Positions 20,184-50,370 of a stretch of DNA of 64,000 bases are shown here, piece after piece. Each line of letters opens with the position of its first letter. Position 1 is the stretch's first letter. Both the position numbers and the translations under genes were made by a program. The notes below the pieces were generated by a model. That model saw only the letters and a program-made list of their open reading frames with translations, was not told the origin of the DNA and searched no databases. The stretch spans positions 42,482-106,481 of the IMG/VR virus record IMGVR_UViG_3300047509_000156. One strand, written 5' to 3'. Source of the stretch: a virus.

Positions 20184-20477
20184 TCACGAGACCTGCGGCA
20201 AGGGTCGGACGTGCCAGCGTCCCTTGACCTGGAAGCCCCAGAAGACGTTGGCGTCGTGCCATCCCTTCTGCCACTGCCGGTAACAGTGCCGGTCGTCGGC
20301 GTGACTGTAGGGGTTGTCCGACAGCCCCTTACCGGCGATGCGGTCGCTGGACCCGCGATTGAACGCTGTCGCCATCTGTTCGGTGAGCGTTTCCTTGTAC
20401 TCCTGTTTCAATCCGCCCCCCCGGTCATCCGAGGGGGAATTCTCGTCATAGCCTGGCATCTTCTCGTGGTCGATCAT
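20184..20477 (-). CDS. Rmf/CrpP-like small protein
   Basis: AFNRG....AG....NPY........W.KGW motif. Confidence 0.6.
   Translation of the reverse strand: MIDHEKMPGYDENSPSDDRGGGLKQEYKETLTEQMATAFNRGSSDRIAGKGLSDNPYSHADDRHCYRQWQKGWHDANVFWGFQVKGRWHVRPLPQVS
20405..20441 (-). CRISPR. Solitary CRISPR-repeat-like unit inside a CDS
   Basis: AATTCCCCCTCGGATGACCGGGGGGGCGGATTGAAAC; 9-bp stem (1 G-U) plus ATTGAAAC end. Confidence 0.6.
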
Positions 20478-20740
20478 TCCTCTTCCTCCACTCGCTCCAC
20501 CTTGAATTCCGGTAGGCTGTCCACGTCGATCAGCCGCCGCATCGCCGCCCGCGCCTCACCAGCCGTCCACGCTTGGACGATGAAGTCGATCTCCGTTCCG
20601 GCCAGGCGCCACAGGGGAGTTGGTTTCTTGAGGTGGACGACGCGGGCACCTATTTCCTTGTTGATATTGGCAAACGCACGCCTCTTACTCTTGGCAGACT
20701 TCAGGGAGGCGATCTGTTCGCTGATGCTTACCCGGCGCAT
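20474..20740 (-). CDS. Hypothetical protein
   Basis: GGAGG RBS; coupled. Confidence 0.55.
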   Translation of the reverse strand: MRRVSISEQIASLKSAKSKRRAFANINKEIGARVVHLKKPTPLWRLAGTEIDFIVQAWTAGEARAAMRRLIDVDSLPEFKVERVEEEE

Positions 20741-21348
20741 ACTTCCTCCTCCGGATACTCGTTACCCCAGCCATCGAAACCCGATCGCCTCTTACGGGAG
20801 AATAGTTCCAGTCGCGGTTCTGGGCTGCACTTCTCGACCATCTCCATGAAGGAGTCTGGTTTGACGCTGTGCGGCAGGCGTTCGGAGAGAAATAGAGTTG
20901 GTATCGCCTCCTCGACTTCCAGACGAAGTTTTCCACGGACGGCGAATAGGCAATGTTCCGTGGCACTGCGGAACCAGTACCCCGTCTTGCACGACGGCTC
21001 GAAGGAAGCCTTGTCGGCCTTTCTTACCTTGCCCCAGGTGATGATCGTCTTGGGTTTGAATCCCCACGCCCTAGCGAGGTCGTGTGCTTCCTCCATGAAG
21101 GAGTTTGTCGTCCAAAGATAGAGGTGGGCGTCCTCCTGAACGAGAGACTGTACGCCCAGACGGATCAGATCGATCATGCTCATCGTCTCGTAGTGACTGC
21201 CAAGATCGGCCTGAATGATCTCTGCCGCCCTCCCCTCCTGGCTGCCCCTGCCGCCATTGCCGACGACGGCGCGTGGCGAGTGATAGGGCCACGGCGGGTC
21301 AGCCACGATGCAGCGGTAGTGCTTCGGAAGATCACTCAATTGTCGCAT
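20728..21348 (-). CDS. MT-A70 family adenine methyltransferase
   Basis: IVADPPW, LYLWTTN, AWGF, HSVKP, RLELFSR, WGNE. Confidence 0.92.
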   Translation of the reverse strand: MRQLSDLPKHYRCIVADPPWPYHSPRAVVGNGGRGSQEGRAAEIIQADLGSHYETMSMIDLIRLGVQSLVQEDAHLYLWTTNSFMEEAHDLARAWGFKPKTIITWGKVRKADKASFEPSCKTGYWFRSATEHCLFAVRGKLRLEVEEAIPTLFLSERLPHSVKPDSFMEMVEKCSPEPRLELFSRKRRSGFDGWGNEYPEEEVCAG

Positions 21349-21360
21349 TTCCGCTCCTTA

Positions 21361-21720
21361 TTAGATTTCCCAGAGAGTAACCACGATCTTGCCGCCCTTG
21401 CACACTTCCTTGCGGATGACATGTAGATCGTCGATATGTTCATCATCCTGATAAACTCCGGCCTTTTGCAGGGCGTCCAAAGTCGATTTGGCTAAGTTAT
21501 CGATATCGCGTCCTCGACGATCAGGAGGGAACACCTCGATAAGCACGCCGAGCCTGCCGTCCATTGGCTTCAGGCGAGCGATAACGCACATGATGCCGAC
21601 TGCTTCCCTGAACAGTTTACCTTCCTCGCTCACAAGAACCTTGATCCCCTTGGGGCAGGCTACATGGCGCCAGTAGTGGTTGACGCTTGGAGCGAAAGGG
21701 AGTTCGATTGTCTGCTTCAT
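21361..21720 (-). CDS. rusA: RusA-family Holliday junction resolvase
   Basis: PSVNHYW, PPDRR.RDIDN..K..LDAL, DD..IDD. Confidence 0.92.
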   Translation of the reverse strand: MKQTIELPFAPSVNHYWRHVACPKGIKVLVSEEGKLFREAVGIMCVIARLKPMDGRLGVLIEVFPPDRRGRDIDNLAKSTLDALQKAGVYQDDEHIDDLHVIRKEVCKGGKIVVTLWEI

Positions 21721-22061
21721 GTCGTCTCCTTGACCACCTCGTACTTTCTGCCGACCCTCTTGATGTACCCCGTAGCGATCAGCCCTCTGGCGCCGGCCAG
21801 ACAGGCGTAGACTCGCCGCGAGCAGGCTGAATCGCTCTCGGCTCCTATGAGTCCGAAATGCGTCTGGCTTTCTTCCCAGCAGGCCAGTATTAGCGTGGTG
21901 AGCGAGAAAGGTTGCTGGAGGTTTTCTGCCACACCGAGAAGCACCTCCACGGCTGATCCGGGTATGAGGATTTTCTTCTTGATGGCGTGTTTCTCGTCGT
22001 AGACGCGGTTCCACTCAGCCTCGTCGTGTGCCGCCAGTGCAGCAGGGGTGTCGTCGTTCAT
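21717..22061 (-). CDS. Hypothetical protein (possibly wHTH)
   Basis: Coupled ORF with GGAGA RBS. Confidence 0.55.
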   Translation of the reverse strand: MNDDTPAALAAHDEAEWNRVYDEKHAIKKKILIPGSAVEVLLGVAENLQQPFSLTTLILACWEESQTHFGLIGAESDSACSRRVYACLAGARGLIATGYIKRVGRKYEVVKETT

Positions 22062-22236
22062 TTATCTCTCCAAAGTCCCAAACGTCTCAGTTCTTCCTCG
22101 GCCTGCCGCGCCAGTTCCTCGATCCGCTCCTCGTGTCCTGGCGGATCGTGCAGGACGAGATCGCCGTGGTGGCGTCTCTGTCTCGTCTTGGTCATCGTCT
22201 CCGATGGCCGGCAGGCGTGAACGCTATTATTCTCCA

Positions 22237-22653
22237 TCAGAATCCTCCGCCCTGCGAGATGTAACCGGCGACCTTCTCGGGCAACGGTTCCGGCTTCACA
22301 TCGGCCAAGTCCATGCGTCCGAGAAACTCGATGGCTAAAGCACGGACGCAAAATGAGTACACGCCCTTACACGTCTTGATCCAGGGATGTCCGCGTACCT
22401 GGCCGTCTGGTTTGCTCCAGGCTTCGAGGAACTTGCACACCAGTTTATCCAGCGGCGTGCCGTACTGGATCGCCGTCGAAAACAGGATGGCCCAGTCGTC
22501 GGCCACTAGGCGGATGTCACCGTTGCCGACGACGAGGAACACCTCCCCCAACTTGCCGTCCTCATAGAGGCCGCAAGTCAGAAACACGTCCGTGCCTCCG
22601 ATATCGACGGACCATGTGAAGGATTTGCGACGGTCGGGGAGTTTACGGTACAC
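22237..22653 (-). CDS. Stand-alone TSCPD domain (class II RNR C-terminal-like)
   Basis: RKLPDRR, G.YEDG..GEVF, S.AIQYG.PL. Confidence 0.8.
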   Translation of the reverse strand: MYRKLPDRRKSFTWSVDIGGTDVFLTCGLYEDGKLGEVFLVVGNGDIRLVADDWAILFSTAIQYGTPLDKLVCKFLEAWSKPDGQVRGHPWIKTCKGVYSFCVRALAIEFLGRMDLADVKPEPLPEKVAGYISQGGGF

Positions 22654-22945
22654 CTTGCATCTCCTTGGATTCTCTCTGTCTTTGAATCGTCACCGCACGC
22701 CACATGGCTTCCAGAGTTTCGTGGAGATCCTTCATCTGATCGGCCTTGCCGCGAACGCCGGCACAGAGCATCTTCTTGATGGCGTGCTGCCGCGCCGGGC
22801 AGGTTATTCCGAACGCCTCCAGTACGCAGTACACGTCAACGAGGATAGGCTTGCCGTTGTCGTCTGCCGGGTGGATCAGACGGAGATACTTGGAGCCGCT
22901 GTGGCTCTGTATTGGCCTCTCGTAAATAGACGGGTCTTTTTTCAT
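22643..22945 (-). CDS. Conserved phage protein (DUF3310-like)
   Basis: DVY.VL.AF.ITCPA.QHAIKK.LCAG.RG. Confidence 0.75.
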   Translation of the reverse strand: MKKDPSIYERPIQSHSGSKYLRLIHPADDNGKPILVDVYCVLEAFGITCPARQHAIKKMLCAGVRGKADQMKDLHETLEAMWRAVTIQRQRESKEMQGVP

Positions 22946-22991
22946 GGTTGTTTCCCAGGCAGCCGGCGGTTCTCCTTGCCCACTATCTCCA

Positions 22992-23091
22992 GTTTCAATC
23001 CACAGCCAGCCCAGCGGCCGGCTGCACCGTCTCATCAGTCCGATCAGATTGGTGGTTTCAATCCACGCCTAACCCACATGGCCAGGCGCAC
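22992..23091 (-). CRISPR. CRISPR mini-array (2 repeats, one 27-nt spacer), type I-C-like repeats
   Basis: GTGCGCCTGGCCATGTGGGTTAGGCGTGGATTGAAAC - CACCAATCTGATCGGACTGATGAGACG - GTGCAGCCGGCCGCTGGGCTGGCTGTGGATTGAAAC. Confidence 0.8.
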
Positions 23092-23116
23092 GATTCCGCC
23101 GGCTGCCTGTTGATCG

Positions 23117-23962
23117 TCAGTGGTCGCGAACCCACACTGTCTCGACCATGCGCCTCTTGGATTCTCCCGATGCGGCGTTGTTCGGCAGCGTCCATTCCTG
23201 CTGCGTTGTGTGCTTGTTCAGCATCCGGTCGTAGAGGTCGTTGCGGTATCCCGAGAGGATAAACTTCGACTTACCGCGAAGCAACTGCTCCAGAAGCCTC
23301 TCGTGCTGTTCGACCGTCATCTCGTGCTGGTAGTCGTCCGTGCTGGCGCGGGTCTCGGGCATGTAGCTTGGATCTAGGTACAGGAGCGTGTTCTCGCCGT
23401 CCTGCTCGCGGCACACGTCGATGCCGTCGTGGTTGAGGATGACGACTCTCTTCAAACGGGCGTGGACCTCTGGAAGTCCCTCGATGCACGTCAGCCACGC
23501 GGATGCCTGCTCGTTCTGTCCACGGCGTGTCCTGTTCCGCGACAGTGGGGCGAAGTGTTTCATTCGCCCAGCGAGCGATTGGCGGCAGCAGATAAAGAAA
23601 CTACAGGCGCGGAGAACACAGGCTGCTGTTCCTTGCGTGGTGATTTCGCTGGAATCTGGAACACCTTTCCACCCGATATTCCTCAGAATTCCGGCGGAAA
23701 CAGTCCACTCGAACTCGCTAAACGGTGTCGCTTCGATGACACGGAAGAACGCCTCGAACGTATGCGGGTGACGGATAACAGTCCAGAAGTTTGTCAGGTG
23801 GCGGTAGAGGTCGTTCGCAACCTCGCTGACACCTTCCGGGTTCTTGGCGAGCAGGACAGACAATCCGCCAGCGAACGGCTCGACGTAGTGCAGGTGCGGT
23901 ATCGAGTCGGTAATCTCGACGATCCTGGCGGCAAGGTATGATTTTCCGCCATTCAGTGCCAC
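23117..23962 (-). CDS. Dam/D12-class DNA adenine methyltransferase (N-terminus disrupted)
   Basis: GGKSYLA, YVEPFAG, EVAND, YLDPSY; the KWH of the usual KWHGGK start is in another frame. Confidence 0.85.
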   Translation of the reverse strand: MALNGGKSYLAARIVEITDSIPHLHYVEPFAGGLSVLLAKNPEGVSEVANDLYRHLTNFWTVIRHPHTFEAFFRVIEATPFSEFEWTVSAGILRNIGWKGVPDSSEITTQGTAACVLRACSFFICCRQSLAGRMKHFAPLSRNRTRRGQNEQASAWLTCIEGLPEVHARLKRVVILNHDGIDVCREQDGENTLLYLDPSYMPETRASTDDYQHEMTVEQHERLLEQLLRGKSKFILSGYRNDLYDRMLNKHTTQQEWTLPNNAASGESKRRMVETVWVRDH

Positions 23963-24255
23963 TTCAAACAGGACGGCACAGGCCGAAACGTCGAAGCGGC
24001 ATTCCTCCTTTCACTGGTCATCTTGTCCCTCCTTTCCCGGTACTTCTCCAGGCATGGCTTGCACACCAGTCCGTAGCGCCAGATCCACCAAGCATCATCC
24101 AGAGGCTCGATCACCTCTTCGCATGTCCGACATGGGTACGCCTTGGTGACGAGGATCTTCTGGGCGCTACGCCGCGCAGGCAGACGCTCGACGGATGCGA
24201 GTTTGCCATGTTCGTCGCGATACTCTCTGTATTCAGGAGCCTGTTCCACACTCAT
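23953..24255 (-). CDS. Zn-finger protein ending in the Dam N-terminal segment
   Basis: CRTC..CKPC then ...PSCLKWH*. Confidence 0.55.
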   Translation of the reverse strand: MSVEQAPEYREYRDEHGKLASVERLPARRSAQKILVTKAYPCRTCEEVIEPLDDAWWIWRYGLVCKPCLEKYRERRDKMTSERRNAASTFRPVPSCLKWH

Positions 24256-24724
24256 CGGAGTTCCCTCCGTCGCGCCACTCGCAGAAAAAGCGCCATAGTT
24301 TACGCTGCATCCGCTCGATACTGCTGTCCTCGGCGGTGAAGCAGTGCCCGCAGGGAAGCACCGCCTTGCCCTCATGGCGTTGTTCCGGTGTCGCGTGATA
24401 GATCGAGGAGAAGTTCGTTCCGTCTGGCCATCTGAATGATTCTTCCGGCGCGGGGCGGTTTTGCCGCTCGACGAGCATCTTGGCCTTCCGCGCCTCAGCA
24501 CGCGCCTTGCGCTTCTCCTGCCGGCAACTGCCGCAATCCTCCTGGGCATAGGAGGCGACCGGGCGAACATGACCGCACTTGAATGCCACGTTCTCCGTCA
24601 GTTTGACGTGACACTTCGGCACCGGCAGGTCGTTGGAGATCTGCGGCTTGTCGGCCACGATGAGTCCCTTGGCCGCTTGTTTACTTCGCATTCGTTCGAG
24701 TCGATCCCCCATCATTTCCTCCAC
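24233..24724 (-). CDS. Hypothetical Cys-containing protein
   Basis: ORF with GGAGG RBS. Confidence 0.55.
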   Translation of the reverse strand: MEEMMGDRLERMRSKQAAKGLIVADKPQISNDLPVPKCHVKLTENVAFKCGHVRPVASYAQEDCGSCRQEKRKARAEARKAKMLVERQNRPAPEESFRWPDGTNFSSIYHATPEQRHEGKAVLPCGHCFTAEDSSIERMQRKLWRFFCEWRDGGNSDECGTGS

Positions 24725-24742
24725 CAGAGTAGTTCGTGCCAG

Positions 24743-24847
24743 TCAGGAAACTGAGCGGCCTTCGTCCCCGACTTTGAAGCCTTCCAGAACCGCCTCGGCG
24801 CGCCGCCAGAGAAAGACCACCAACCATAAGGCAATCCGTTGCAACAT
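24743..24847 (-). CDS. 34-aa hydrophobic peptide
   Basis: GGAGG RBS; MLQRIALWLVVFLWRRAEAV...; directly follows a solitary repeat. Confidence 0.45.
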   Translation of the reverse strand: MLQRIALWLVVFLWRRAEAVLEGFKVGDEGRSVS

Positions 24848-24862
24848 CGTAAACCTCCATGA

Positions 24863-24898
24863 GTTTCAATCCACAGCCAATATTGCGACCGGACGCAT
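24863..24898 (-). CRISPR. Solitary degenerate CRISPR repeat
   Basis: ATGCGTCCGGTCGCAATATTGGCTGTGGATTGAAAC; 27/36 identical to repeat 22992-23027. Confidence 0.65.
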
Positions 24899-25186
24899 CG
24901 GAAAAATCGCCCGCCGCCGGGTTGGACTGCAAACGACAAAGGTCTGGCGCCTCTCCAACGAGGATCGGCACTCCCAGCGGCGGGCGAAGTCACGTCTTAG
25001 GCTTATAAGTCTTCAGAGTGCCGTACACTCCACATCACCTAGCCTTTCCTTGTTTTGTGCTCGCCGGAGCATAGAAGAGAACCCCCAACCACGAGCGTCC
25101 TTTACCACCCTCCGGCGAGCCTGGCCTCTCGGGTGGCCTCGCGATGACCCGCGCCGGCAACGAGCCGGATAGTCTCCCGAGAAGGA

Positions 25187-25486
25187 TCACGCTGTCCGCA
25201 TCGCTTCCGGTTTGCAGACGATAAGTTGCAGGACGGGCTGGATCGTAGCCACTTCTCTGTCCTCGAAGGAGATGACGCCCAGACGCCGTAATTTCCTGAC
25301 GATGTGGTGGACGTGATTGCTCGCCTTGAATCCGCATCTCTTGGCGACCGTGCGAATGGAGATCGGTTTGCGCTCCCGGTAGAGGTCGTAGATGGCGGCG
25401 ATCACCTTGACGTGACCTGGAGGCAGAACGTCGGAGCGGATGGATCGCGGCATGGTGTGGTAGATACTCGGTACTCTGAGAGACAT
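25187..25486 (-). CDS. LexA-like DNA-binding domain protein
   Basis: SIR.VA..CGF.....V......L...G.I wHTH; no protease domain. Confidence 0.7.
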   Translation of the reverse strand: MSLRVPSIYHTMPRSIRSDVLPPGHVKVIAAIYDLYRERKPISIRTVAKRCGFKASNHVHHIVRKLRRLGVISFEDREVATIQPVLQLIVCKPEAMRTA

Positions 25487-25558
25487 GGTCCGTTCTCCGT
25501 TGTTTATGTCTTCCTCTGCACTATATACGCTCCTGTCTCTTGCGTGTGACAGGGAGAG

Positions 25559-25876
25559 TTATTTTTTCTGGCCATTGCCGTTGGTGTGCGTGCCATTCGT
25601 GCCGGCGGCGACGGCTATCTTGGGCTTTTCGGCAGGCTTTTCCTGGGGTCGCTCGGCGTCGAGGTGTTTCTGGTACTCGTCGATGATGAGACCGATCAAT
25701 CGGTCGGCCTCGCTCTTGGCCACGGCGGTGGTGACGTTTCCCAGCGTCTCGCGGTCTTCCATGTTCCCCGAGTGACAGGCACTCATCGTGGCGGCGCGGA
25801 AGGAAACCGTCCCCGAGAGGATAACACCCACGGTCAGGCCGTGGAGGCGTGCGATGGTGCGTTCGCGTGCGGTCAT
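25559..25876 (-). CDS. Hypothetical protein
   Basis: ORF after the helicase. Confidence 0.5.
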   Translation of the reverse strand: MTARERTIARLHGLTVGVILSGTVSFRAATMSACHSGNMEDRETLGNVTTAVAKSEADRLIGLIIDEYQKHLDAERPQEKPAEKPKIAVAAGTNGTHTNGNGQKK

Positions 25877-25894
25877 GGGTGACGCCTTTCGTGG

Positions 25895-28198: not shown

Positions 28199-29238
28199 TA
28201 TTTGACCCCCATCTGATCGTAGGCGTAGCGCGTGACGCGGCCCGTCTTGTGGCATTGCTTGCAGCCTTCTCCCCGGCAGAGAGGACAGGCACAGTGGCAC
28301 TTGGCCGAGCGCACTGTCTCACAGACCGACTTGAGTTTGTTGATGGCGCTCTTGCGGCGGTCCATGTCAAGGAGCCAGGGATCGTCCGGCATCGTCTCGG
28401 TGAACTTCATGAGTTGCCGGCACCACGACTCCAGTTTACTGTTGAGCCGCTTGATCTGTTGTTCGGTCGTTTCATCTTCGGGCGCTTCCGGCTCCTGGTT
28501 CAAGTCTTCATCAGTCTGCTCGGATAGCGTCTTGCTCTTTTTTTTGCCGCTGCCCTTGCCGAGATTGCGCTTCCTTGCCTTTTTACGCTTGTCTTCACAG
28601 GAGGCACAACCGACCACGACGCCGTTCTTCTTACACTGCGGGCAGAGGATCGGTTTCCCACCACCGGAAATCTGAGCAATCGTCTGCCCTGACTGGCCGT
28701 TGAGGATGACGGAACGGGCGCCATCGCCTTGCTCGGCAGCGGCAGCATCGACGCCGGCAGCGAACTGAGTGGCGTTCTTGACTGTGCGCTCAGAAACGCC
28801 GTGCTCTGAGGCCAGTTCTGCCGCCGTTTTATTTCCTCCCTGTTGGGGAGGAATCGGGCAAAATTTGCCCGATTCCTCCCCAACAGGTGCGCTATTGCTA
28901 CTGCGCGTAAGTTCTCTCTCCTTACCGAGATAGTACAATTTTTGCTCTGGAGTCGCGTTTCGCCTTCCGAACTGGTTTTGGATAATCCAGAGCAATGCCG
29001 CTTCGCGTGAAGGTAGCTCGATTTTCCTTGTAGGAATTTTGAGATGCTTTTCCTCTGCAATATCGAACCGCGTGTGCCCGTCGCCAAGAATCGGTTCGTC
29101 TTCTCCTGGCAGTTGAAGGAGGACAAGCGGGTCGATGTGCTGGCTCTTTTCGATCTCAGCTTCCAGGGTGCTGCGCTCCTCTTTGGTCAGGGCGGGGAGA
29201 TAGGACTTGAACTCCTGATCGATCTTGAAGGATTGCAT
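28198..29238 (-). CDS. ParB-like domain protein
   Basis: KID.EF...LP.LT.EE, DGHTR, NQFGRRN, HTH GVSERTV. Confidence 0.8.
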   Translation of the reverse strand: MQSFKIDQEFKSYLPALTKEERSTLEAEIEKSQHIDPLVLLQLPGEDEPILGDGHTRFDIAEEKHLKIPTRKIELPSREAALLWIIQNQFGRRNATPEQKLYYLGKERELTRSSNSAPVGEESGKFCPIPPQQGGNKTAAELASEHGVSERTVKNATQFAAGVDAAAAEQGDGARSVILNGQSGQTIAQISGGGKPILCPQCKKNGVVVGCASCEDKRKKARKRNLGKGSGKKKSKTLSEQTDEDLNQEPEAPEDETTEQQIKRLNSKLESWCRQLMKFTETMPDDPWLLDMDRRKSAINKLKSVCETVRSAKCHCACPLCRGEGCKQCHKTGRVTRYAYDQMGVK

Positions 29239-29279
29239 GTCTTGCCCTCGACTATATAAGCACGCTATCCTCCGGAAAA

Positions 29280-29396
29280 TCCCCTGGTCCGGCTGAAGAT
29301 GGCCGGGGAATAGCGTGTGGCTCAAGTTGTTCGGTTAGTGGCCCGGACCAGGGGTCACTGAGAAAGCAGTTTATCCAGAGGCGATGTATCCGTCAA
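29280..29396 (-). promoter_or_regulatory. Sigma70 promoter plus structured leader RNA, copy 1
   Basis: TTGACG-17-TAAACT, then CAGTGACCCCTGGTCCGGGCCACT... Confidence 0.65.
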
Positions 29397-29409
29397 CGAG
29401 AAAATCACG

Positions 29410-30396
29410 CTATTTCCCGGCCAGTGCAGGTACGCCAAGAATCTTTGTCTGCCAGGTTTCCCAGCACGTCATGAAGTGCGACAGATGATCGAGGCATGTG
29501 CGGTGTTCGAGGCTATTCTTCTCGTGCGGATAGGAGATAGTCAGTCCGTCTACCATGCCGACGAACTTGTCATACTCGGCCTTGACCGCCTTGAAATCGA
29601 ATAGGGGCTTGCCGTTGCGCTGGTGGCTTTCCTTATTGTCTTCAGGTTCGGAGTGGCCGTTCGTGGTGCCGTTGCGGGACGCCTTTCGCTTCTCGGCAGC
29701 GGCCTTCTTACGTGCTTCTTTGCACTTCTCGCAGTCCTTCACCTTGCCGACGCGCGTACATCGCTCGCAGTAGATCGTCGGTGTCTTGGTGGCGGACTGT
29801 GACCTGCCATCCCTGCCAGCGCGTGTCCTTGTGCCGCCTCCGGTGCCACGCTTTTTTCTGCCGCCGGGACCAGTATTTTTCTTTGAATCATCAGAATGTT
29901 CATCATCTTGTTCATGTTGAGTGGGAGAACTCCCACCTGACATCTCGGTGCGCTCTTTGCGCATCTCTCCAACAAGATGATTACTGACGCGGCATTGATC
30001 TGCGATCCATCGATCAGCCTTGCCGGACCACTCCGTATCGTCCAAAAGCGTGGCGACGGCGTTGCGGCGATCATCATAGGTTCGCCGCTTGCCGTGGGAG
30101 TCGTTGGCACCGCAGGCGTACAGGATCGCGTCCCTTACCGTTCCTTTCTTCACCGTGGCGTTGATTTTCTCCTTGCCGGCCCTCTTCGCGGCTGCCAGGC
30201 GAAAGTGCCCATCGGCGAGATATCGGCCTCCGTTGACGCCATCGCTCTCGAAAACGACGATGTCCGGCATGTCCTTGTCCATATTGGTGCGGTAGATTTC
30301 CGCGTACTCCTCGATGGTCGCCTCGTCCAGTTCGACGCGGATCTGCGTCCCCGCGTCGGTGATGATTGTGCTTACGTCAATAAATTCAGTTGCCAT
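29410..30396 (-). CDS. ParB-like domain protein
   Basis: GTQIR, LADGHFR..A, AN..HG..R...D.R.AV. Confidence 0.85.
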   Translation of the reverse strand: MATEFIDVSTIITDAGTQIRVELDEATIEEYAEIYRTNMDKDMPDIVVFESDGVNGGRYLADGHFRLAAAKRAGKEKINATVKKGTVRDAILYACGANDSHGKRRTYDDRRNAVATLLDDTEWSGKADRWIADQCRVSNHLVGEMRKERTEMSGGSSPTQHEQDDEHSDDSKKNTGPGGRKKRGTGGGTRTRAGRDGRSQSATKTPTIYCERCTRVGKVKDCEKCKEARKKAAAEKRKASRNGTTNGHSEPEDNKESHQRNGKPLFDFKAVKAEYDKFVGMVDGLTISYPHEKNSLEHRTCLDHLSHFMTCWETWQTKILGVPALAGK

Positions 30397-30419
30397 CCTG
30401 CCCTACGGAAAAAGGCGCG

Positions 30420-38788: not shown

Positions 38789-38884
38789 CATGGATCTCTA
38801 CAACGTCTTCTGCCTTGTCCTGATCACCCTTGTTAGCCTCGATGCCGTGGTACACGACGGGAGAACCTAGCCCCAAAGGACCAA

Positions 38885-39373
38885 ATGGACCACTTAGCCG
38901 CCCTCGTCTCGGCAATAACTGCCCTGGTCATTGCTGTAACCGGCCTGCTGGCAATGATCATCCGACTGTGGTTTCTCATGAAGAGAGGAGACGCCAAGAC
39001 CGACAAGCGCGTGGACCTCATCTGGTCGCGGGATATATCCCGTGGCGAGATGGCAGTCCAGAAGATCGACACGAGGTCGCTGGAGGCAGCCTTCGCCCCG
39101 ATTGCCCCGGCACTCAGGCGGATCAAGTACGACCTACCCGACGCCACTGCGGGAGAACTGGCCGAGGCCATCGAGGACCGGATGGGGGAATGGATTACCC
39201 GGCATATATGCGGACCCCTCCATGTGAAGGACTATATGTGTCTTGCCATCGCTCTCCAGGTGGCCAGCAGCGAGGGGCCAAGCGTCCGCAACCATAACTC
39301 ACCCTGGCGGCGAGTCAAGCCGGCGCCCATGACGGATATCGCGACACCGGCCAAAGAAGATACCGCGAAGTAA
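38885..39373 (+). CDS. Membrane protein (N-terminal TM)
   Basis: Hydrophobic N-terminus; holin-region-like context. Confidence 0.6.
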   Translation: MDHLAALVSAITALVIAVTGLLAMIIRLWFLMKRGDAKTDKRVDLIWSRDISRGEMAVQKIDTRSLEAAFAPIAPALRRIKYDLPDATAGELAEAIEDRMGEWITRHICGPLHVKDYMCLAIALQVASSEGPSVRNHNSPWRRVKPAPMTDIATPAKEDTAK

Positions 39374-40086: not shown

Positions 40087-40104
40087 GGAGGACAGAACAA
40101 AGCC

Positions 40105-41739: not shown

Positions 41740-41742
41740 CTC

Positions 41743-42375
41743 TCATCCTCCCACTTGTGGCGGTTTGATCGGCGGCAAGCCAACGAGTTCTCTGCCCCAG
41801 GCGACACAGGCGACCGATAGCGCCCAGAAGGCAGCTTCCTCGCTGTCATGGCGCGGCTCTTTGTGGGCGCCGCGTTCGTTGAAACGAAGTCCAGGCAGTT
41901 TCATGCCGATATAGAGCGGTAAGATATCGCCAGTCCAGTAATGCCTTTGATTACCGCCGATCAGCCATCGCCAGACTTCTTTGCCTCTGGTTCTCCTGTT
42001 CTGAAGCCTCATCGGCTTCTTATCAGTCAGCCTAACTTCAGTGATCGGCTGCTCAGAGAACAGCGTTTCGGCGTGTTTGAGGAAGTCTTCACAACTCATC
42101 TCGACGCCAACCACAAAACCTCGATGGACGGTCCCCGAGGCGTTGAGGAACCTTCTCTTCTCCGGCGAGCGCCAAGACTCTGCTATACCGATAGCGCCGT
42201 CGAGTGTGCAGTGCAGTTGCCCGTATGGTTCCAGGACTCTCTCGCGGATGTACGCTGCACGCTCGATCTCGCCGGCCTCGTCGATGGCGTCGGCGTAGAC
42301 GAGACGAACGTCGTCCCTGTCTGGTTCTTCGAGGATGGCCCACAGGAGGCTATCGATGGTGGGCTGGGTGATCAT
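41743..42375 (-). CDS. TIGR02996 domain protein
   Basis: LLWAILEEPDRDDVRLVYADAIDEAG..ERAAYIR; HRGFV; PITEVRLTD. Confidence 0.9.
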   Translation of the reverse strand: MITQPTIDSLLWAILEEPDRDDVRLVYADAIDEAGEIERAAYIRERVLEPYGQLHCTLDGAIGIAESWRSPEKRRFLNASGTVHRGFVVGVEMSCEDFLKHAETLFSEQPITEVRLTDKKPMRLQNRRTRGKEVWRWLIGGNQRHYWTGDILPLYIGMKLPGLRFNERGAHKEPRHDSEEAAFWALSVACVAWGRELVGLPPIKPPQVGG

Positions 42376-43691: not shown

Positions 43692-43967
43692 TCATGGTTC
43701 CTCTGGAATTGGATCGTAAGCGTGTTTGGCATACCCGCTTTCGTGGTAGTACGCTTCCGTATGACGCCACAACGTGAGAAGTTCGTCGGACCAGTGCGCG
43801 TTGCCGTGCGACAGCATTTGTGATACGTGTCTGCAAGCATTCGCCAGGTCTTCAGCGGTGTGCCAAGGACGTTTGTTCGTGCGGATCGCTTCTTCAAGTT
43901 CCGCTCGCTTCGTGCGCAGGAGCGTTTTCAACCGCTCCTCTTCACCCTTCAGGGAATCTTCGCTCAT
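43692..43967 (-). CDS. Hypothetical protein
   Basis: MSEDSLK.. with GAGG RBS. Confidence 0.5.
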   Translation of the reverse strand: MSEDSLKGEEERLKTLLRTKRAELEEAIRTNKRPWHTAEDLANACRHVSQMLSHGNAHWSDELLTLWRHTEAYYHESGYAKHAYDPIPEEP

Positions 43968-44449
43968 GATGTCCTCACAATACCCACAAGCAAGGAATAG
44001 CCCGCGTTCGTCTGGAGGGAATTGCACCCTCTGGCCTTGACGTTCGCCAGTACGCATGAGTAGCGAACAACCTTGCTCGTAGGTGTCTCATCGCCGGCCC
44101 CGTCGCCGGCCCTTCTTGTGGTTGATCTTCTTGTACGAATGGCGGGGGCGGGGTGCTGGGCGGTCGATGCGGAGAAACGGCCCTGCGCCGACTGCCAGAA
44201 TCGGTGGATGATCGAGAGCCCCTCCTTCTCCACGGTCTGCCACCAGTCCTCGGGGAGGACAGCCTGGACGTGGAGGGTGTGTTCCCCGCACGACAGGATC
44301 ATGTCGGGAGAGCCCACGCTCACCTGGACACGCGCTTTCCAACTCGGGCCGCGCAAGGGCGCATCGATACCCACGAGTGCCGGCAGGCAGCTTTCCGCCC
44401 AGGTCTGGACCAGGCGGGTGGCCAGGGTGAGGTCGTGTTGCGAGGGCAT
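43964..44449 (-). CDS. Hypothetical protein
   Basis: Shares a DW..V...GL motif with the ORF near 42900-43150. Confidence 0.45.
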   Translation of the reverse strand: MPSQHDLTLATRLVQTWAESCLPALVGIDAPLRGPSWKARVQVSVGSPDMILSCGEHTLHVQAVLPEDWWQTVEKEGLSIIHRFWQSAQGRFSASTAQHPAPAIRTRRSTTRRAGDGAGDETPTSKVVRYSCVLANVKARGCNSLQTNAGYSLLVGIVRTS

Positions 44450-44452
44450 GTG

Positions 44453-44668
44453 TCACTTTCCTGTCGTCTTGCGGCGGTATGCCTCTCTTTTCCAGGCGTT
44501 CACCCGGCGACGTCCTCTGGGCGTCTGCCGCAGTCGGGCGCTGTAGTCATTCATACAAGCCTTGCACCAGCTACGCGCCCTGCCGTTTTGGCGGTAGAAG
44601 TCGTCGAGTGGAAGGACTCGGAGGCAGTGCTTGCACTCCTTGGTCAGCGTCAATGTGTCGTCCCTCAT
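44453..44668 (-). CDS. Small Zn-binding protein
   Basis: K.C..C....PL..FY....S.CK.C. Confidence 0.65.
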   Translation of the reverse strand: MRDDTLTLTKECKHCLRVLPLDDFYRQNGRARSWCKACMNDYSARLRQTPRGRRRVNAWKREAYRRKTTGK

Positions 44669-44952
44669 TGCTGTTTCTCCTTGGTTAGCGTCCGCGAATC
44701 TGGTCGCACAACTCGATCAATTCCTTCAGGCATGGCGTCTGAGCGGCATCTGAGCGCCGCAGAAAGTCGGCCACGGCACATGCCTTCTCGAAGAGGTCGT
44801 CGCGTTGGCTACTGGCGAAACTGATCGACACCTCGCGCAACTCCTTAGCCAACTTGTCGGCTCGGCTCGACAGAGAGGCCAGGTAGGTACAGGCGTTGCT
44901 GTAGGGGTTCTTCACGGGGTACTCCAGGGGGGGGGGGATGGGTGATGGTTTG

Positions 44953-45771
44953 CTACGCCGTGGCGATAGAGAGCGGCTTCTCTTCACCGGGAATCGGGAA
45001 CAGTTCCTGGTCGGTCGTCACCAGTTTGGTGAGCCTCTTCTGCTCCAGAAAAGCGACGAGTGCCGCCTCAGCCTGGCGGTAAAGTTCTCGCCGCGACCCT
45101 GATTGTTCTGGTAGGACTTCAAGGACGAAGTTTCTCAGGAGGATCGCCGCCTCGTCACCGGGGACCATCATGCCACTCTGGAGAACTTCGCCGAAGCGTT
45201 CCAGCATCTTCTTCTTGGCCTTGCCGATGGCAGCGCGGACCACGACGGCGCGAATCGAAGAAGAAACGAACTTGCCGCTGGGAAGAATCTTGTGCGCCAG
45301 TGATACCTGCTCGCCGTAAGTCTGCATGAACTCGTCCACTTCCTTGTCTGAGATCGCACAGAATCCCTTCATGGCCGGGCCGTAGAGGAGTCTGCGAACA
45401 GTGGGGCCACAGCCGCGCGGCCAGTCCTTGTCGGCGATGCGGAAGTTGTCGTCCGTCGAACGTCTCTGGCAGCCGTCGAGAACGAGGAAAGAATCCTTGG
45501 GCAGGCCGTGCATGACGACCGAGTCGAAGGAGACGCCAGCTCGGGAGCAGGCAGTCAGTCGTTTCTTGCCGTTGATCAGGTTGTGGTCCACGCCGAAGGA
45601 GATGGCCTGGTCGGACAACTCCCATCGGCCGTTCTCCATGTCGGACTGGTACTGCGCCACCTTGCCCTCGTTGAGCCGGCGGTTGCGCGGATGGTCCCGC
45701 GTCAGCCAGTTCTCGGCCATCTGTGGGGTGATGGTCATGATCTCTACCGTTGGTTGCTGCCGTCGCGTCAT
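44953..45771 (-). CDS. ParB-like N-terminal domain phage protein
   Basis: ITP.MA..WL...NR.L....V..Y..DM..G.W; LING..RL.A. Confidence 0.8.
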   Translation of the reverse strand: MTRRQQPTVEIMTITPQMAENWLTRDHPRNRRLNEGKVAQYQSDMENGRWELSDQAISFGVDHNLINGKKRLTACSRAGVSFDSVVMHGLPKDSFLVLDGCQRRSTDDNFRIADKDWPRGCGPTVRRLLYGPAMKGFCAISDKEVDEFMQTYGEQVSLAHKILPSGKFVSSSIRAVVVRAAIGKAKKKMLERFGEVLQSGMMVPGDEAAILLRNFVLEVLPEQSGSRRELYRQAEAALVAFLEQKRLTKLVTTDQELFPIPGEEKPLSIATA

Positions 45772-45918
45772 AGCGGGTTCTCCTGGGAAAAACGGTTGCC
45801 TTGTTCTCTCTCGACGTTATACTATACGCAGTTGTCTCCTTCTTGTGACAGAGAGATCGGTAGAATCCAGAGAATATCGGTCACAGTCCGGATGAATCGG
45901 CGTATATCAAGTGTCGCC

Positions 45919-45955
45919 ATTTTCCCCCGGCCAAAATCCGGGGGCGGATTGAAAC
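45919..45955 (+). CRISPR. Solitary CRISPR-repeat-like unit in a 5' leader
   Basis: ATTTTCCCCCGGCCAAAATCCGGGGGCGGATTGAAAC, between promoter 45880-45907 and the RBS. Confidence 0.7.
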
Positions 45956-45977
45956 AAGAGAGAAAGGACGGTGAAAC

Positions 45978-46584
45978 GTGGAGACGGCAGAACCCAAGGA
46001 ATCCTGGCGGATTGTCTGGCGAGCGGCGGCGGATTTGATCTCTCTGGAGGAACTGCAATTTATTCAGGTGACATTGGCGAGCGATGATCCGAGATGGGTC
46101 CAGGGCGCCACGACCAGTCCTCCCCCCTTTGCAGGCTGTGGCAGATTGGCCCGTGGAAGCCGCCTGTCTGTTCGGCCTATGTGGAGTGTTCAGCGGCGGC
46201 GGTTGGGGAGAGGCAATCGTCTCGGACACTGAGGATCGGTTTGCGAGACTCTGTTTCGACGTGGACCAGAAACTAGGCGAGCCTGCCGGCGTGAGATTTT
46301 TGCTCAACTGGCATGATGAGGCGCCCCGTGAGGAGGTCCGCCAGTCCTTACTCACAGAGATTACGGACGCCATCTCCTCCCGACTGTCCTCCCTCCGCGA
46401 CCGTCTCGCCAATCTGGGCGGGCAGCGTATCCTCGCCGAGGTGGAGTTGCAGGACTTCCTCGCGGAAGGTGACACGGGACTCTCGCCGGACCCGTCCCGT
46501 GGCAAGGCGGCACAGGAACGCCTCGACACCATCAACGCCGAGTACGCACAGGTGCGCGAGGAATACGCTAGGGCTACGGCGTGA
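45978..46584 (+). pseudogene. Planctomycete-type hypothetical gene split by a +1 frameshift
   Basis: ESWR.VWR..DDPR.VQGATTSPPP continues as LQAVADWPVEAAC in another frame at the C6 run near 46122. Confidence 0.65.
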
Positions 46585-46652
46585 ATTGTTGTCACAACTA
46601 CGAGAATATGCCGTATATCAGGGTGTCGCCCGGAAGCGTAAGGAGAAGAACC

Positions 46653-46925
46653 GTGAGCAAGAAGACAGCGAAAGGTGTTCGCTCAAAGGTAACTCTCTAC
46701 ATCGACAGCGGCGCCGTGCAGGTCTTTGCTGGACAGTTGCATCCCGCCGTGTTCACCGAGGAGGAAGCCTGCCGCATTCTCCTAGCGCATAAGGATCTCC
46801 TTGCCGCGTGTCGCAGCGCCCTGACACTCGTTGCCACAATGCAGAGTATGCCGCCGTCTGTGGATTGCATTGAGAGCGTTCTCGAGCAACTCGAATCCGC
46901 CATCGCCAAGGGAGAATCGCCGTGA
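46653..46925 (+). CDS. Hypothetical protein
   Basis: Own promoter at 46591; AAGGAG RBS; DLLAAC..A...AIAK motif. Confidence 0.6.
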   Translation: MSKKTAKGVRSKVTLYIDSGAVQVFAGQLHPAVFTEEEACRILLAHKDLLAACRSALTLVATMQSMPPSVDCIESVLEQLESAIAKGESP

Positions 46926-47142
46926 TCCAGACTGTGAATAAACTTGTCGGCAAGATCGCCGCCCGTGCCGCCGAGTTGGCCAACATGAAAATCAACCGGC
47001 TCCGTCTGGAGGCACCAGCCTACGAGGAGAGCGTCGCTGCTCATTTGAGGATCGCCAAGTTGGATTTCCCTGACCGAGGAAGACTCATCGAGGCGATTCT
47101 TCTGGAGGAGTTCAGCGAGGAGTTTGATCGGAGTATTGATCC

Positions 47143-47454
47143 ATGACACCCACCACCCCCATCCGTGGCCTCCACGATGTCACGCGAATCGCCAGTGGCT
47201 ACGGCATCCCCTGGCAGGTCGCCCTGACGCCCGAATGTTTCGAGAGGTGTATTCGCGTCGGCGTCTTCTGGAGCAAAGAAGAGGACCGCCTCGCCGACGT
47301 GATTTACGCCCTTGCCGTCGCCCTGAGAAGCTGCCGCTGGTGCTGGCGTATCTACGTACCCTCGGGGACACGAGTTCCCGACGTGGTTAAACTGCGGGCA
47401 CGGCGGGAGGAGAATAACGAGGAAGTACGAATTATCGTGGACCTGGAGGAGTGA
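47143..47454 (+). CDS. DUF6573-like protein
   Basis: DVT..A...GI...VALT...E..RL.DV. Confidence 0.55.
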   Translation: MTPTTPIRGLHDVTRIASGYGIPWQVALTPECFERCIRVGVFWSKEEDRLADVIYALAVALRSCRWCWRIYVPSGTRVPDVVKLRARREENNEEVRIIVDLEE

Positions 47455-47652
47455 TGAACAAATACGAACTGGCAGCCAAGATCGGCGATCTGGCTGAAGA
47501 GGCTGGAGAATCCTACGCCGCCGTTGTCCTGCTCGCCCTGGCCGGAGCGGTAATGATTGGACTGGAGAGAGAGTTGGCCGATGTTTGTGTTCTCGTCTCG
47601 CAGAGACAGAAGGATTTCTGCGACAGAAGTCTCAAGGCAAAGGATAACTAGC

Positions 47653-48141
47653 ATGGGAGACCGTAGCCGCTTCCGACTGTTCGCTCAACTGATCGCCGAG
47701 AGGTTCCCTGACCGCAAGGCGCGAATCGCCGACGTGGCCTGTGGCAAGGGGCAACTGCACAGTGAGTTGCACCTCCTGGGTTATCGCAACGTCGTCTCCT
47801 GGGACAAGCGGAAGAGGAACCTGCGGCGACTTTCAGTGGGATTCCGCTACGAGTGGTTCGACTACCGAAACGCTCCCAGGGGTTACGATCTGGTGGTTGG
47901 GATGCACCCCGACGAGGGCACGGACCACATAATCCTGTACGCCGCCAAGCACAAGGTTCCTTTCCTCGTCTGCCCCTGCTGTGTGCTTCCAAGTGCTGCG
48001 GAGTACGGCGGGCAGCGTGCCTGCTACACGGACTGGATGCGTCATCTCGTCGGTTTGGCACGTTCCCGAAGGATGACGACCGACACCGTATCTTTGCCGA
48101 TGGATGGACGAAAACAGGTAATCGTGGGAGGCTGTCGATGA
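47653..48141 (+). CDS. SAM-dependent methyltransferase-like protein
   Basis: ADVACGKG.L, VVGMHPD, PF.V.PCC. Confidence 0.8.
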   Translation: MGDRSRFRLFAQLIAERFPDRKARIADVACGKGQLHSELHLLGYRNVVSWDKRKRNLRRLSVGFRYEWFDYRNAPRGYDLVVGMHPDEGTDHIILYAAKHKVPFLVCPCCVLPSAAEYGGQRACYTDWMRHLVGLARSRRMTTDTVSLPMDGRKQVIVGGCR

Positions 48142-48473
48142 GCGTCATGAACCTGCGCTGGCGTTCCGATTCCAAGGTGGAACTGACCCTGTGCTGGCCG
48201 GACGGTCGCAGTTTCGTTACCGTTGCCACGAGAAACGGTGATCACATTGACATCGACACGCCTTATTTCCCCGACAAAGGCGACATCGATTCAGTCGAGG
48301 CGATACGCGACGTGACGCAGTGGTTGGCGCTGGGAGCCTGCTGTGCCCAGATGCTTGTCGGGTTCGACCACGCCACACTGGAAGATCTCGTCGCCGGCAG
48401 GAAGATGCTCCAGATTCCCAACCCGATCATCTCCATCACAATCGGGGTGGTGGACGCTGTGGAGGATAAGTAA
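48138..48473 (+). CDS. Hypothetical protein
   Basis: Coupled ORF. Confidence 0.5.
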   Translation: MSVMNLRWRSDSKVELTLCWPDGRSFVTVATRNGDHIDIDTPYFPDKGDIDSVEAIRDVTQWLALGACCAQMLVGFDHATLEDLVAGRKMLQIPNPIISITIGVVDAVEDK

Positions 48474-48973
48474 TGTCAGAACGATTCATGACGCCCGAGA
48501 ACGGGCTTTGCTCCTTTTTGCCGAAACGAAACGATTTGAGGTATTTAAGAGTAAAAAAGGAGCAAAGCCCCGAGAACGCCGACGCCTTCGTGGATTTTCC
48601 GCCCGCCCGCAAGGAATGCCCGAATCATCTTCCCGATGGGAGGCTTTGTGCCCGCTGCCACGGTTTCGGCGGCTGGAACCTGGAATTGAACGCCTACCCG
48701 AAAACGAAGGAGCAAGAAGATGCGATCCGCGACAACCTTCGCAGGTGTCCGGTGACGAACCTGCCCGGTCCCGACATGACGAACGCCGAGTTCCGGCATC
48801 ACTATGTCCACTTCCGCGCCAGTTGCTCCAACTGCAACGGCTGGGGTTGGGTCAAGAAGGAACAGGGCGATCATGTCCACGAGTGGGTGGAGAGCCGCAA
48901 TGTGGGGAAATGCCTGAACGAGTACACCTGTAAGACGTGCGGTGAAAGGCAGACGGTGGATTCGTCGGACTAG
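48473..48973 (+). CDS. Zn-finger protein
   Basis: C..C.G.G motifs. Confidence 0.65.
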   Translation: MSERFMTPENGLCSFLPKRNDLRYLRVKKEQSPENADAFVDFPPARKECPNHLPDGRLCARCHGFGGWNLELNAYPKTKEQEDAIRDNLRRCPVTNLPGPDMTNAEFRHHYVHFRASCSNCNGWGWVKKEQGDHVHEWVESRNVGKCLNEYTCKTCGERQTVDSSD

Positions 48974-49356
48974 CGGATGGTATTGCGCCCGGCCTGCTGG
49001 TCGGGTGTGGATTGAAACGCCTGAAGCGCCATGATCTCCTGTTGCTTCCTCTCGATCTCCCTGGCCTTCTCCTCGCTCTTGCGGAGTTCCGCTGCCTCGA
49101 TGGCGGCGGCCAGGTCATCGGCACAGTGCCCGATCAGTGCCTTGGCCTGGTCGATCGACAGGGTGATCTCTTCGTGGGTCGCCGTGGGTGTCGGTCCGGA
49201 GTGGTGCATAAGAGGAGGAAGGGGCCGGCGGATCTTGATGGACGTACCGGAGGCGAGGATCAAGATGGCGTCGGGAGGGAGGGCTTTCTTGGCCATGTGG
49301 GACAACCTTACGGGTGGGGGCGGAATCGGCTCTGGGAGGCGGTAAACGTGGTTCAT
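48970..49356 (-). CDS. Hypothetical protein
   Basis: Coupled ORF; C-terminus encoded by the antisense of a CRISPR-like repeat. Confidence 0.55.
   Translation of the reverse strand: MNHVYRLPEPIPPPPVRLSHMAKKALPPDAILILASGTSIKIRRPLPPLMHHSGPTPTATHEEITLSIDQAKALIGHCADDLAAAIEAAELRKSEEKAREIERKQQEIMALQAFQSTPDQQAGRNTIR
48983..49018 (+). CRISPR. Solitary CRISPR-repeat-like unit
   Basis: TTGCGCCCGGCCTGCTGGTCGGGTGTGGATTGAAAC; 9-bp stem with 2 G-U pairs. Confidence 0.7.
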
Positions 49357-49553
49357 TCCTTCGGCTTCATGATGTCGGCGTACATGGACTTGGCGTCCTC
49401 GTTGAGGGAGTCGGCCAGTGACTTACCGCCCTCGGCGCGACGCTGCTCGGAGTATCCAATTGCAACTGCTTGTGCTTCTGGTTTTCCCGCCCGGCGTTCC
49501 GTGGCGATGTTCTCGGATCGTGCTTCGTCCGAAGGGGAATGGTTAAGCGGCAT
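49353..49553 (-). CDS. Small phage protein
   Basis: MPL....S..A.S.NI..E..AGKP..QAVAI motif. Confidence 0.7.
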   Translation of the reverse strand: MPLNHSPSDEARSENIATERRAGKPEAQAVAIGYSEQRRAEGGKSLADSLNEDAKSMYADIMKPKE

Positions 49554-49902
49554 GGCTGGCTCCCTCTTTCTCTGGGGCGACGACGGCGAGCAGGTGGCTC
49601 TCCGGCATGATAACCAATGTTTTGCCGTTATGCTCAACCTCGGAGCCCTGGTAGCGCGGGTAAAGGACGGTGTCGCCGACCTTAACCGTCAGAGGGTAGC
49701 GGCCTTCCGTCGCGTATCGCGTCTGGGTCTTGGCGGAGAGCATCTCGGGCACTACGAGTCCTGGCCCAACAGCAACCACGGTGCCGCGCTGCGGCTTATC
49801 CTTGGCCGTATCAGGGATGTACAGACCGCTCTTGGTCCGGTCGGGTGCCTCCAGAGGATCGATGACAACGCGGTCGTTCAGAGGAGAGATCGGGTAACTC
49901 AT
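49543..49902 (-). CDS. groES: Co-chaperonin GroES
   Basis: PLNDRVV, TKSGLYIPDTAKDKPQRG.VVAVGPG, VKVGD.VLY..Y.G. Confidence 0.95.
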   Translation of the reverse strand: MSYPISPLNDRVVIDPLEAPDRTKSGLYIPDTAKDKPQRGTVVAVGPGLVVPEMLSAKTQTRYATEGRYPLTVKVGDTVLYPRYQGSEVEHNGKTLVIMPESHLLAVVAPEKEGASHAA

Positions 49903-49984
49903 GGAATTACTCCTGGTTTCGTGGTCACAGGTTACTACGAGTAGCGTATATGACTCGTCGCCCGTCAGCAACACGGAGAGAAAG

Positions 49985-50370
49985 ATGAATCACATTGAAG
50001 CCTTGCGGAATCTCCAGCAGGAGACTGGGCACCCCGGTCACGAACTGGGTACGTTCCTGCTCCAGAACAGCAACTCGCTGCCTTACCTCGCGGAGCAGTT
50101 GAAGTTTCAATCCCCTCCTTCGCGGGGCACTTCTGCGGACTCAAGGAGAAGAACGATCTGGACGCACACCGCTGGCGCGATTACGAATTGGTGGAAGTCG
50201 GATGGATTAACGGCGTGAATCCGAAGACGGCCCGCTCGCTTGTTGAGGCCGGCGTTCTGGTCGAGGACATGCCTTTCGATATGGACGCGAACACCAACTC
50301 CCATGTTCGCCTACCACGGCTGGAAGAGGTGTATCCGAGAATCGGCAAGCCGCTGATCGATGTTCTTTGA
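49985..50370 (+). pseudogene. Gene apparently interrupted by a CRISPR-like repeat
   Basis: Own promoter at 49924; MNHIEAL..EQLK in one frame and KEKNDL..VEAGVL in another, flanking the repeat. Confidence 0.5.
50104..50140 (-). CRISPR. Solitary type III-like CRISPR repeat
   Basis: GTCCGCAGAAGTGCCCCGCGAAGGAGGGGATTGAAAC, 37 nt with CCCC/GGGG stem. Confidence 0.7.

Follow-up and report, generated by a model that had tools for sequence, protein, structure and literature searches.

Solitary CRISPR (short palindromic repeats, clustered and regularly interspaced) repeats carried by phages are a known and recently validated class of RNA anti-CRISPRs (Racrs). RacrIF1 binds Cas6f and Cas7f, giving aberrant complexes (PMC10651486; reviewed in PMC11656645), and RacrIC1 lies 11 nt past the anti-CRISPR (acr) gene acrIC5, with which it is co-transcribed; such solitary repeat units (SRUs) are frequently found behind a promoter (PMC10651486). 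Viruses also carry CRISPR mini-arrays, which are used in inter-virus conflict (PMC11656645). Here we describe seven CRISPR-repeat-like units, u1 to u7, in a 64,000-nt stretch of a phage genome (positions 42,482 to 106,481 of IMG/VR record IMGVR_UViG_3300047509_000156), hereafter the window, whose numbering is used for all coordinates unless stated. By their sequence the units most likely copy or mimic CRISPR repeats of the host, six those of type I-C and one those of a Cas6/type III type, in a phage without cas genes. The best reading of them, and one towards which we lean, is that they act as Racr-type RNA decoys against host immunity.

The exact 10-mer GGATTGAAAC occurs seven times in the window, at 20405(-), 22992(-), 23055(-), 24863(-), 45946(+), 49009(+) and 50104(-), compared with 0.06 occurrences expected, and none of 100 shuffles reaches seven. 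All copies are restricted to 30 kb of non-structural genes, the remaining 42 kb of the phage genome holds none, and every copy forms the end of a 37-nt unit. The preliminary description of this DNA had reported seven scattered repeat units here, and all of its positions are correct. Sister units differ at 9-16 of 27 body positions and have an identical tail, and no near-copies with hairpins were found in addition to the seven. We dropped a candidate for an eighth unit (21054, -; weak stem, tail GGATTCAAAC), as it did not reach an E value of 10 in Rfam. We also considered the conserved tail as a sigma-70 -35 box and rejected this because no -10 element lies at a fixed distance.

Type I-C repeats consist of a stem-loop and a single-stranded tail of about 11 nt that ends in ATTGAAAC and gives rise to the 5′ handle generated by Cas5d. 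This architecture is found in u1-u3, u5 and u6, whose stems end 10-11 nt before the 3′ end and whose tails read (T/C)GGATTGAAAC. The best-formed unit is u6 (48982-49018, +), with a 10-bp stem and a z of -3.6, where z is the unit folding energy relative to shuffles. Stems of 10 bp are also present in u2 (22992-23028, -; z -3.7) and, with G-U pairs included, in u3 (23055-23091, -; z -3.95), which ends in TGGATTGAAAC; u1 (20405-20441, -; z -2.6) combines a 9-bp CCCCC/GGGGG stem with the tail CGGATTGAAAC. These four units fold far better than shuffles (z -2.6 to -3.95). The 7-bp stem CCCCCGG/CCGGGGG of u5 (45919-45955, +) has a folding energy of -13.9 kcal/mol and a z of only -1.05, u4 (24863-24899, -) carries the exact tail and a stem with mismatches (z 0.0), and u7 (50104-50140, -) has a weak 4-bp stem (z -0.4). 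Hairpins had been claimed for all units, with a degenerate one in the u4 copy; this stands for u4 and for most of the others, but u7 too is without a convincing hairpin. The stems of five units (7-10 bp, G-U pairs included) form only in the orientation of local transcription. With its broken stem, u4 may be a decaying copy, as perhaps may u7.

A blind scan of the window with all 4227 Rfam families returned u6, u7, u2, u3 and u1 as the only CRISPR matches; elsewhere in the genome its only matches were to a group I intron and a tRNA. A focused scan aligns each of the seven units across positions 1-37 of 37, u1-u6 with CRISPR-DR9 at 21-34 bits (u6 34, u2 32.3, u3 26.9, u1 23.7, u4 22.2 with E 0.6, and u5 21) and u7 with CRISPR-DR10 at 32.4 bits. 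Both scans, and array repeats that agree with a unit at up to 33 of 37 positions, bear out the earlier claim that the units resemble real CRISPR repeats.

A pattern derived from u2 and u6 finds at least 120 genomic stretches in many phyla, mostly arrays that repeat about every 72 nt, whose repeats take the form G...C.CCCGGCC-loop-GG.CGGG.G.GGATTGAAAC. Among Planctomycetota, such arrays are present in Singulisphaera, Gemmataceae, Planctomycetaceae and Blastopirellula. The repeat of one array (L121) is identical to u6 at 33 of 37 positions, and both this array and that of Singulisphaera sp. GP187 (L022) are preceded by cas7 (PF05107)-cas4-cas1-cas2. Cas5d is found in the Singulisphaera genome, and the cas7-cas4-cas1-cas2-array layout with Cas5d is that of a type I-C system. 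The preliminary description had divided u1-u6 into families A and B and treated these as separate subtypes. This division is not supported: since the repeat of Singulisphaera follows family B in its CCCCCGGCC...GGCCGGGGGCGG form and I-C operons stand beside the arrays, the two are variants of one 37-nt, DR9-like, I-C-associated family. Compared with the genomic 37-nt I-C arrays (L022; CRISPR-DR9), the phage units share the length, the position of the stem-loop and the GGATTGAAAC tail, at an identity of at most 33/37. In contrast to those arrays, they are solitary and dispersed, have neither cas genes nor a leader and score below Rfam gathering.

Repeats like u7 were sought by pattern and match in 12 of 401 Planctomycetota genomes, in arrays; an Rfam DR10 search of 151 Planctomycetota genomes matched nothing, controls included, and is uninformative. 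The u7-like arrays examined (L233, L235) adjoin genes for Cas6, or for a RAMP protein and a Csm6-HEPN protein, which agrees with the earlier assignment of u7, as family C, to a type III-like group. The core ...GTGCCCCG-N6-GAGGGGATTGAAAC and part of the 5′ half are common to u7 and these DR10-like arrays, whereas u7 is single-copy, belongs to no array and lies antisense in a phage gene remnant. In five genomes with DR10-like arrays, the I-C-type repeat pattern was found as an array in none (0/5). The comparison with planctomycete repeats suggested at the outset thus produced relatives for u1-u6, in Singulisphaera and others, as well as for u7.

The virus record is complete, measures 106,481 bp and has direct terminal repeats; the window makes up its right-hand 64 kb. 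The phage is of soil origin: its whole genome is present in one soil run, and small parts are present in two further soil runs, with no RNA run among those listed. We called 183 genes, with 89% of the genome coding and 10.7% non-coding. Searches of the whole phage genome for Cas5d, Cas6 and Cas7 found none, consistent with the preliminary description, which had recognised no cas gene. A tyrosine integrase was also searched for and not found in the phage, which is probably lytic. Five TIGR02996 (Gemmata-type 'repeat-companion') domains are located on different phage proteins, for example at 746-1516 (-), 42238-42354 (-) and 55025-55120 (+). Among sampled genomes, this domain occurs in Singulisphaera and 2 others of the 41 Planctomycetota; the 14 controls are without it, and its distribution in the phylum is otherwise patchy. 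With these domains as the main clue, the sequence suggests that the host is probably a planctomycete. The array repeats closest to u1, u5 and u7 are those of Planctomycetota, a phylum that possesses both repeat families, with I-C and Cas6/type III genes.

At least five of the six sites (u2 and u3 counted as one; u7 lies antisense to a plus-strand cassette as well) run the same way as the neighbouring genes, and, with 10.7% of the genome non-coding, three of the six fall cleanly between genes (binomial p ~0.02). Four units (u2, u3, u4 and u5) are intergenic, and a predicted promoter stands directly ahead of u5 only. This promoter-like motif, GTCACA-N15-CGTAT, has 26 genome copies (25 in the window between 2787 and 63541, one outside), which mostly precede small rightward cassettes, with a TCGCCC box and a ribosome-binding site (RBS) after the motif. 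The copy at 45880-45905 (+) ends 13 nt upstream of u5, which sits between the promoter/TCGCC box and the RBS, 15 nt ahead of the GTG of a 38-codon open reading frame (ORF), itself coupled to g141 by ATGA. Measured against the other 25 cassettes, u5 breaks up the usual TCGCCC...RBS leader. The last gene of this rightward operon is g148 (48473-48973, +), which encodes 166 aa with a Cys-rich C-terminus, and u6 begins 8 nt past its stop, in the 3′ untranslated region and antisense to the final ~16 codons of g149, which is convergent. The 5′ end of the operon is therefore marked by u5 and the 3′ end by u6. Neither g148 nor the ORF after u5 matches a Pfam, PHROG or NCBIfam family or a solved relative.

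The remaining units also lie close to genes, as had been stated for several of them, directly ahead of start sites or within a coding sequence (CDS). Located in a 474-nt intergenic gap, u4 is 15 nt ahead of the GGAGG-ATG of a 34-codon ORF. In frame with g97 (20184-20477, -), u1 occupies codons 13-25 of this 97-aa ribosome-modulation-factor-like protein (PF04957), whose ATG and the stop of the gene upstream overlap (ATGA). The N-terminal extension that holds u1 scores as coding by codon usage, which is its one line of support; no g97 homologues sharing words with it were found. On the same strand as the phage's own GroES co-chaperonin gene (49543-49902, -) and 201 nt upstream of it, u7 lies antisense inside a disrupted small cassette gene (49985-50370, +), the relatives of which form a family of 64-91-aa phage proteins with the core LVEVGWINGV...DMP...HVR. 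The homologous frame of this gene crosses u7 without a start codon, and the promoter, RBS and ATG (49985) are in a different frame. We rejected u7 as a simple 37-nt gene-splitting insertion: the unit does not close the homologous frame, which carries about 6 additional residues, and the break is situated upstream. Elsewhere in the window, a 138-aa ORF at 22237-22653 (-) matches only positions ~970-1096 of a 1222-position model of B12-dependent ribonucleotide reductase and would be a stand-alone C-terminal fragment or domain.

Only 63 nt apart, u3 and u2 would class as a mini-array rather than as solitary units. They occupy part of the 171 nt that separate g105, a Dam-like methylase gene, from the DUF3310-like g104, as first and second repeat on either side of a 26-nt spacer (23029-23054, -). 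A perfect 14-bp inverted repeat (22956-22969/23096-23109), one of 8 inverted repeats of at least 14 nt within 250 nt in the window, brackets u3-spacer-u2. The enclosed RNA domain (22956-23109, -) is predicted to be multi-branched, with the 14-bp stem closing it and the hairpins of both units preserved (-85.4 kcal/mol, z -5.8). After u2 come a GGAG and a 13-codon upstream ORF (uORF; 22983-22942), the stop of which overlaps the g104 ATG. The longest palindrome in the window is located elsewhere: it is a perfect 24-nt inverted repeat with a 1-nt loop (49 nt, 28839-28887), in or beside the 346-aa gene g111.

Like the virus-borne mini-arrays reviewed previously (PMC11656645), u3-spacer-u2 has a repeat-spacer-repeat form in a viral genome without cas genes. 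In contrast to these, the two repeats are unlike each other, with 16 of 27 body positions identical, no matching virus was found for the spacer, and a 14-bp stem encloses the unit. At 26 nt, the spacer is shorter than 1794 of the 1796 natural spacers of this repeat family (31-51 nt), only 2 of which measure 28 nt or less. The phage contains it only once, and IMG/VR yielded no match to it, exact or with every sixth base free. Operation of the mini-array as a normal guide is unlikely, and a spacer outside the natural range with no target fits a decoy better than a guide.

We then compared the locus with related phages. An independent Logan assembly, probably of the source sample (run X1), contains one 40-kb contig that covers u5-u7 with zero differences. 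This contig speaks against an assembler artefact, the chimera that the preliminary description had asked to be checked, although it is not independent sampling. In one contig from a different soil (run X3), position 45918 is joined to 45955 with CGC between them, an exact loss of u5 that restores the canonical leader TCGCCCGCCAAGAGAG. A related soil phage therefore appears to be without exactly u5, at a depth of 2, which is the kind of repeat-free allele that had been sought, and the canonical leader of this allele indicates that u5 is a discrete add-on module. The canonical I-C PAM (protospacer adjacent motif) is TTC, and the PAM of this 37-nt variant may differ. The u5-free allele has GCC ahead of the flank, not TTC, so the earlier suggestion that the units are scars of PAM erasure, which can be checked at u5 only, is not supported there. 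Contigs from other soil runs skip or replace 47448-48138, 38852-39368 and 49295-49379, which indicates that related phages vary by whole small-gene cassettes.

Searches of IMG/VR with the methylase g105 or the 767-aa g110 found no close relatives, and a metagenome locus with the small cassette gene family, the only one found (L242), is distant and devoid of units. The repeat pattern itself finds 91 stretches in IMG/VR, about the chance expectation; about 40 of these are solitary units with good hairpins, and a few contigs have two. Two complete IMG/VR phages carry 2-3 dispersed hairpin units each, with differing stems and a shared tail. One of them (G405, 69.8 kb) has three dispersed hairpins, at 4653, 40705 and 43181 of its own sequence, which differ in their stems and have the (T/C)GGATTGAAAC tail. 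The carriage of several units thus recurs among some phages, with seven at the top of the range observed here. As to the group I intron in the structural, left half of the present genome, outside the window, the Rfam model matches over its full length at 57.3 bits, above gathering (G000 29336-29569 (-), equal to L244:9436-9669).

The Racr SRUs (Camara-Wilpert et al. 2023, PMC10651486) and the units described here have in common a cas-less phage, lone repeat look-alikes, a stem-loop with an intact handle and, in six units, the I-C type. The position of u5 behind a promoter is the classic SRU layout, and that of u6, 8 nt past a stop, resembles RacrIC1, 11 nt after acrIC5 (PMC10651486). In contrast to the described SRUs, there are seven units per genome, their stems are strongly divergent, and most lie inside long operon transcripts and are not small RNA genes, with one in a CDS and one antisense in a broken gene. 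Whereas the I-C repeat tested in that study is 32 nt long, the phage units are the 37-nt variant and are known here from sequence alone.

From these comparisons we infer transcription, Cas binding, inhibition and the identity of the host. The units would be transcribed within phage operons, as suggested by their orientation and by the position of u5 directly behind a promoter. Each unit RNA would present a stem-loop and the invariant 10-11-nt handle to the host processing enzyme and effector subunits, with the I-C units recognised by Cas5d and then by Cas7 and Cas8c, and u7 by Cas6. The decoy RNAs would occupy Cas5d or Cas6 and nucleate guide-less, non-productive complexes, leading to weaker interference against the phage. 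Divergent stems with a constant tail are consistent with recognition by structure plus handle, and with a genome kept free of long repeats that could recombine. The preliminary description had spoken of a multi-subtype Racr arsenal; the Racr-type decoy survives as the best available reading, and the subtypes reduce to two system types, with six units of I-C type and one of Cas6/type III type.

Several observations weigh against decoy function. A constant tail is equally expected from recent, unselected captures out of different arrays. None of the units reaches the Rfam gathering score (best 34 bits versus 45 for CRISPR-DR9, and 32.4 versus 39 for CRISPR-DR10), which makes them look-alikes rather than formal members of these families, and significant structure is absent from u4 and u7. 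A promoter of its own is predicted for u5 only; the other units lie within mRNAs, and u1 within a CDS, unlike the tested Racr small-RNA genes. Around u6 and u7, scanning for sigma-70 promoters gave no match, and u7 would require antisense or leader transcription. SRUFinder regards intragenic matches such as u1 as likely false positives (PMC10651486). Unlike RacrIC1 (PMC10651486), the phage units have no recognisable acr gene near them, and family and structure searches recognised no known one. The u5-free allele is represented by one low-depth contig, with depth 2 and a 26-nt side. None of the 1796 array spacers sampled matches the phage beyond chance length (~14 nt), and no host link was obtained from them. 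As the host is itself inferred, a matching I-C or type III system in it is presumed.

The same evidence bears on other explanations. Host array pieces acquired by illegitimate recombination or repair, tolerated where harmless and now decaying, would leave mostly functionless relics, and this origin would account for the broken stem of u4, the location of u7 in a gene that is broken there and the presence or absence of u5 among related phages; each unit is also at least as near to some real array repeat as to its sisters, as independent captures predict. We nevertheless consider it unlikely that the units are mostly relics, as seven captures would be needed in one 106-kb genome (0.06 expected), their orientation is consistently that of transcription and they are enriched in non-coding sequence. 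Decay is also at odds with five intact hairpins that use G-U pairs on the transcribed strand, with a 14-bp stem built about the mini-array and with the recurrence, in other phages, of several units with differing stems. A role at the DNA level, as recombination or integration sites with host arrays or as decoy sites for Cas1-Cas2 adaptation, is very improbable. Phage integration into CRISPR arrays via repeat-like sites has been proposed for SRUs (PMC10651486), but this phage has direct terminal repeats, a lytic look and no tyrosine integrase that we could find, seven sites in both orientations would be senseless for integration, no leader-like sequence accompanies the units, and G-U pairs in the stems indicate constraint at the RNA level. 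Alternatively, the units could be guide-making cassettes, in which host Cas proteins would make CRISPR RNAs (crRNAs) from the mini-array, or from a lone repeat and its downstream flank, against competing or sibling phages without the insert, as a form of inter-virus warfare or protein-free 'homing'. Virus-borne mini-arrays are known in such a role (PMC11656645), u3-spacer-u2 has the required form, and a guide made of u5 and its flank would match the sibling that apparently lacks u5 and keeps the flank. We give this idea little credence: natural spacers are 31-51 nt long and that of u3-spacer-u2 26 nt, u2 and u3 agree at 16/27 body positions where host-type mini-arrays have identical repeats, and phage and IMG/VR searches found no target. 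The u5-free allele moreover shows GCC, not the canonical I-C PAM TTC, ahead of the would-be protospacer, and the lone units have no downstream repeat to set a 3′ end.

Cas-responsive cis-elements form a further alternative, in which host Cas5d or Cas6 would cut mRNAs at the units, or Cascade would assemble there, altering the stability or translation of downstream genes, so that the phage senses or exploits CRISPR. The sense orientation of the units within operons, the distance of 15 nt from u4 and from u5 to start codons, and the bracketing of the rightward operon by u5 and u6 would all suit such elements, as would the GGAG and 13-codon uORF after u2, which is ATGA-coupled to g104 and overlaps the 14-bp closing stem. 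In an 89% coding genome, however, tolerated insertions have to fall upstream of an RBS and downstream of the preceding stop or transcription start anyway, and the genes downstream (RMF-like, DUF3310-like, small ORFs and GroES) share no common theme. Such a role, which the preliminary description had raised as a Cas-sensing switch, is unlikely. Racr-type decoys could also double as switches. Cas cleavage, or Cascade on the handle, would cover an RBS within ~15 nt (u2, u4 and u5) and open the domain closed by the 14-bp stem, and the u5-u6 operon would be trimmed to a crRNA-like, Cas-capped and stabilised mRNA. We rate this dual role as decidedly unlikely; if true, expression of the downstream genes would be re-programmed only in the presence of CRISPR-Cas.

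Within the class of solitary phage repeats, this genome is an unusually dense case, with seven units of two repeat families, embedded in operons, one of them in a coding region, one pair in a closed RNA domain and one apparently present or absent among related phages. The units would offer a compact test set for which parts of an I-C repeat Cas5d and Cascade need, for whether copy number or stem diversity makes inhibition reach more host strains, and for whether such units act as regulators of phage genes. To our knowledge, almost nothing is known of CRISPR counter-defence in phages of Planctomycetota, and, with a planctomycete as the probable host, the locus would provide a first look at it.

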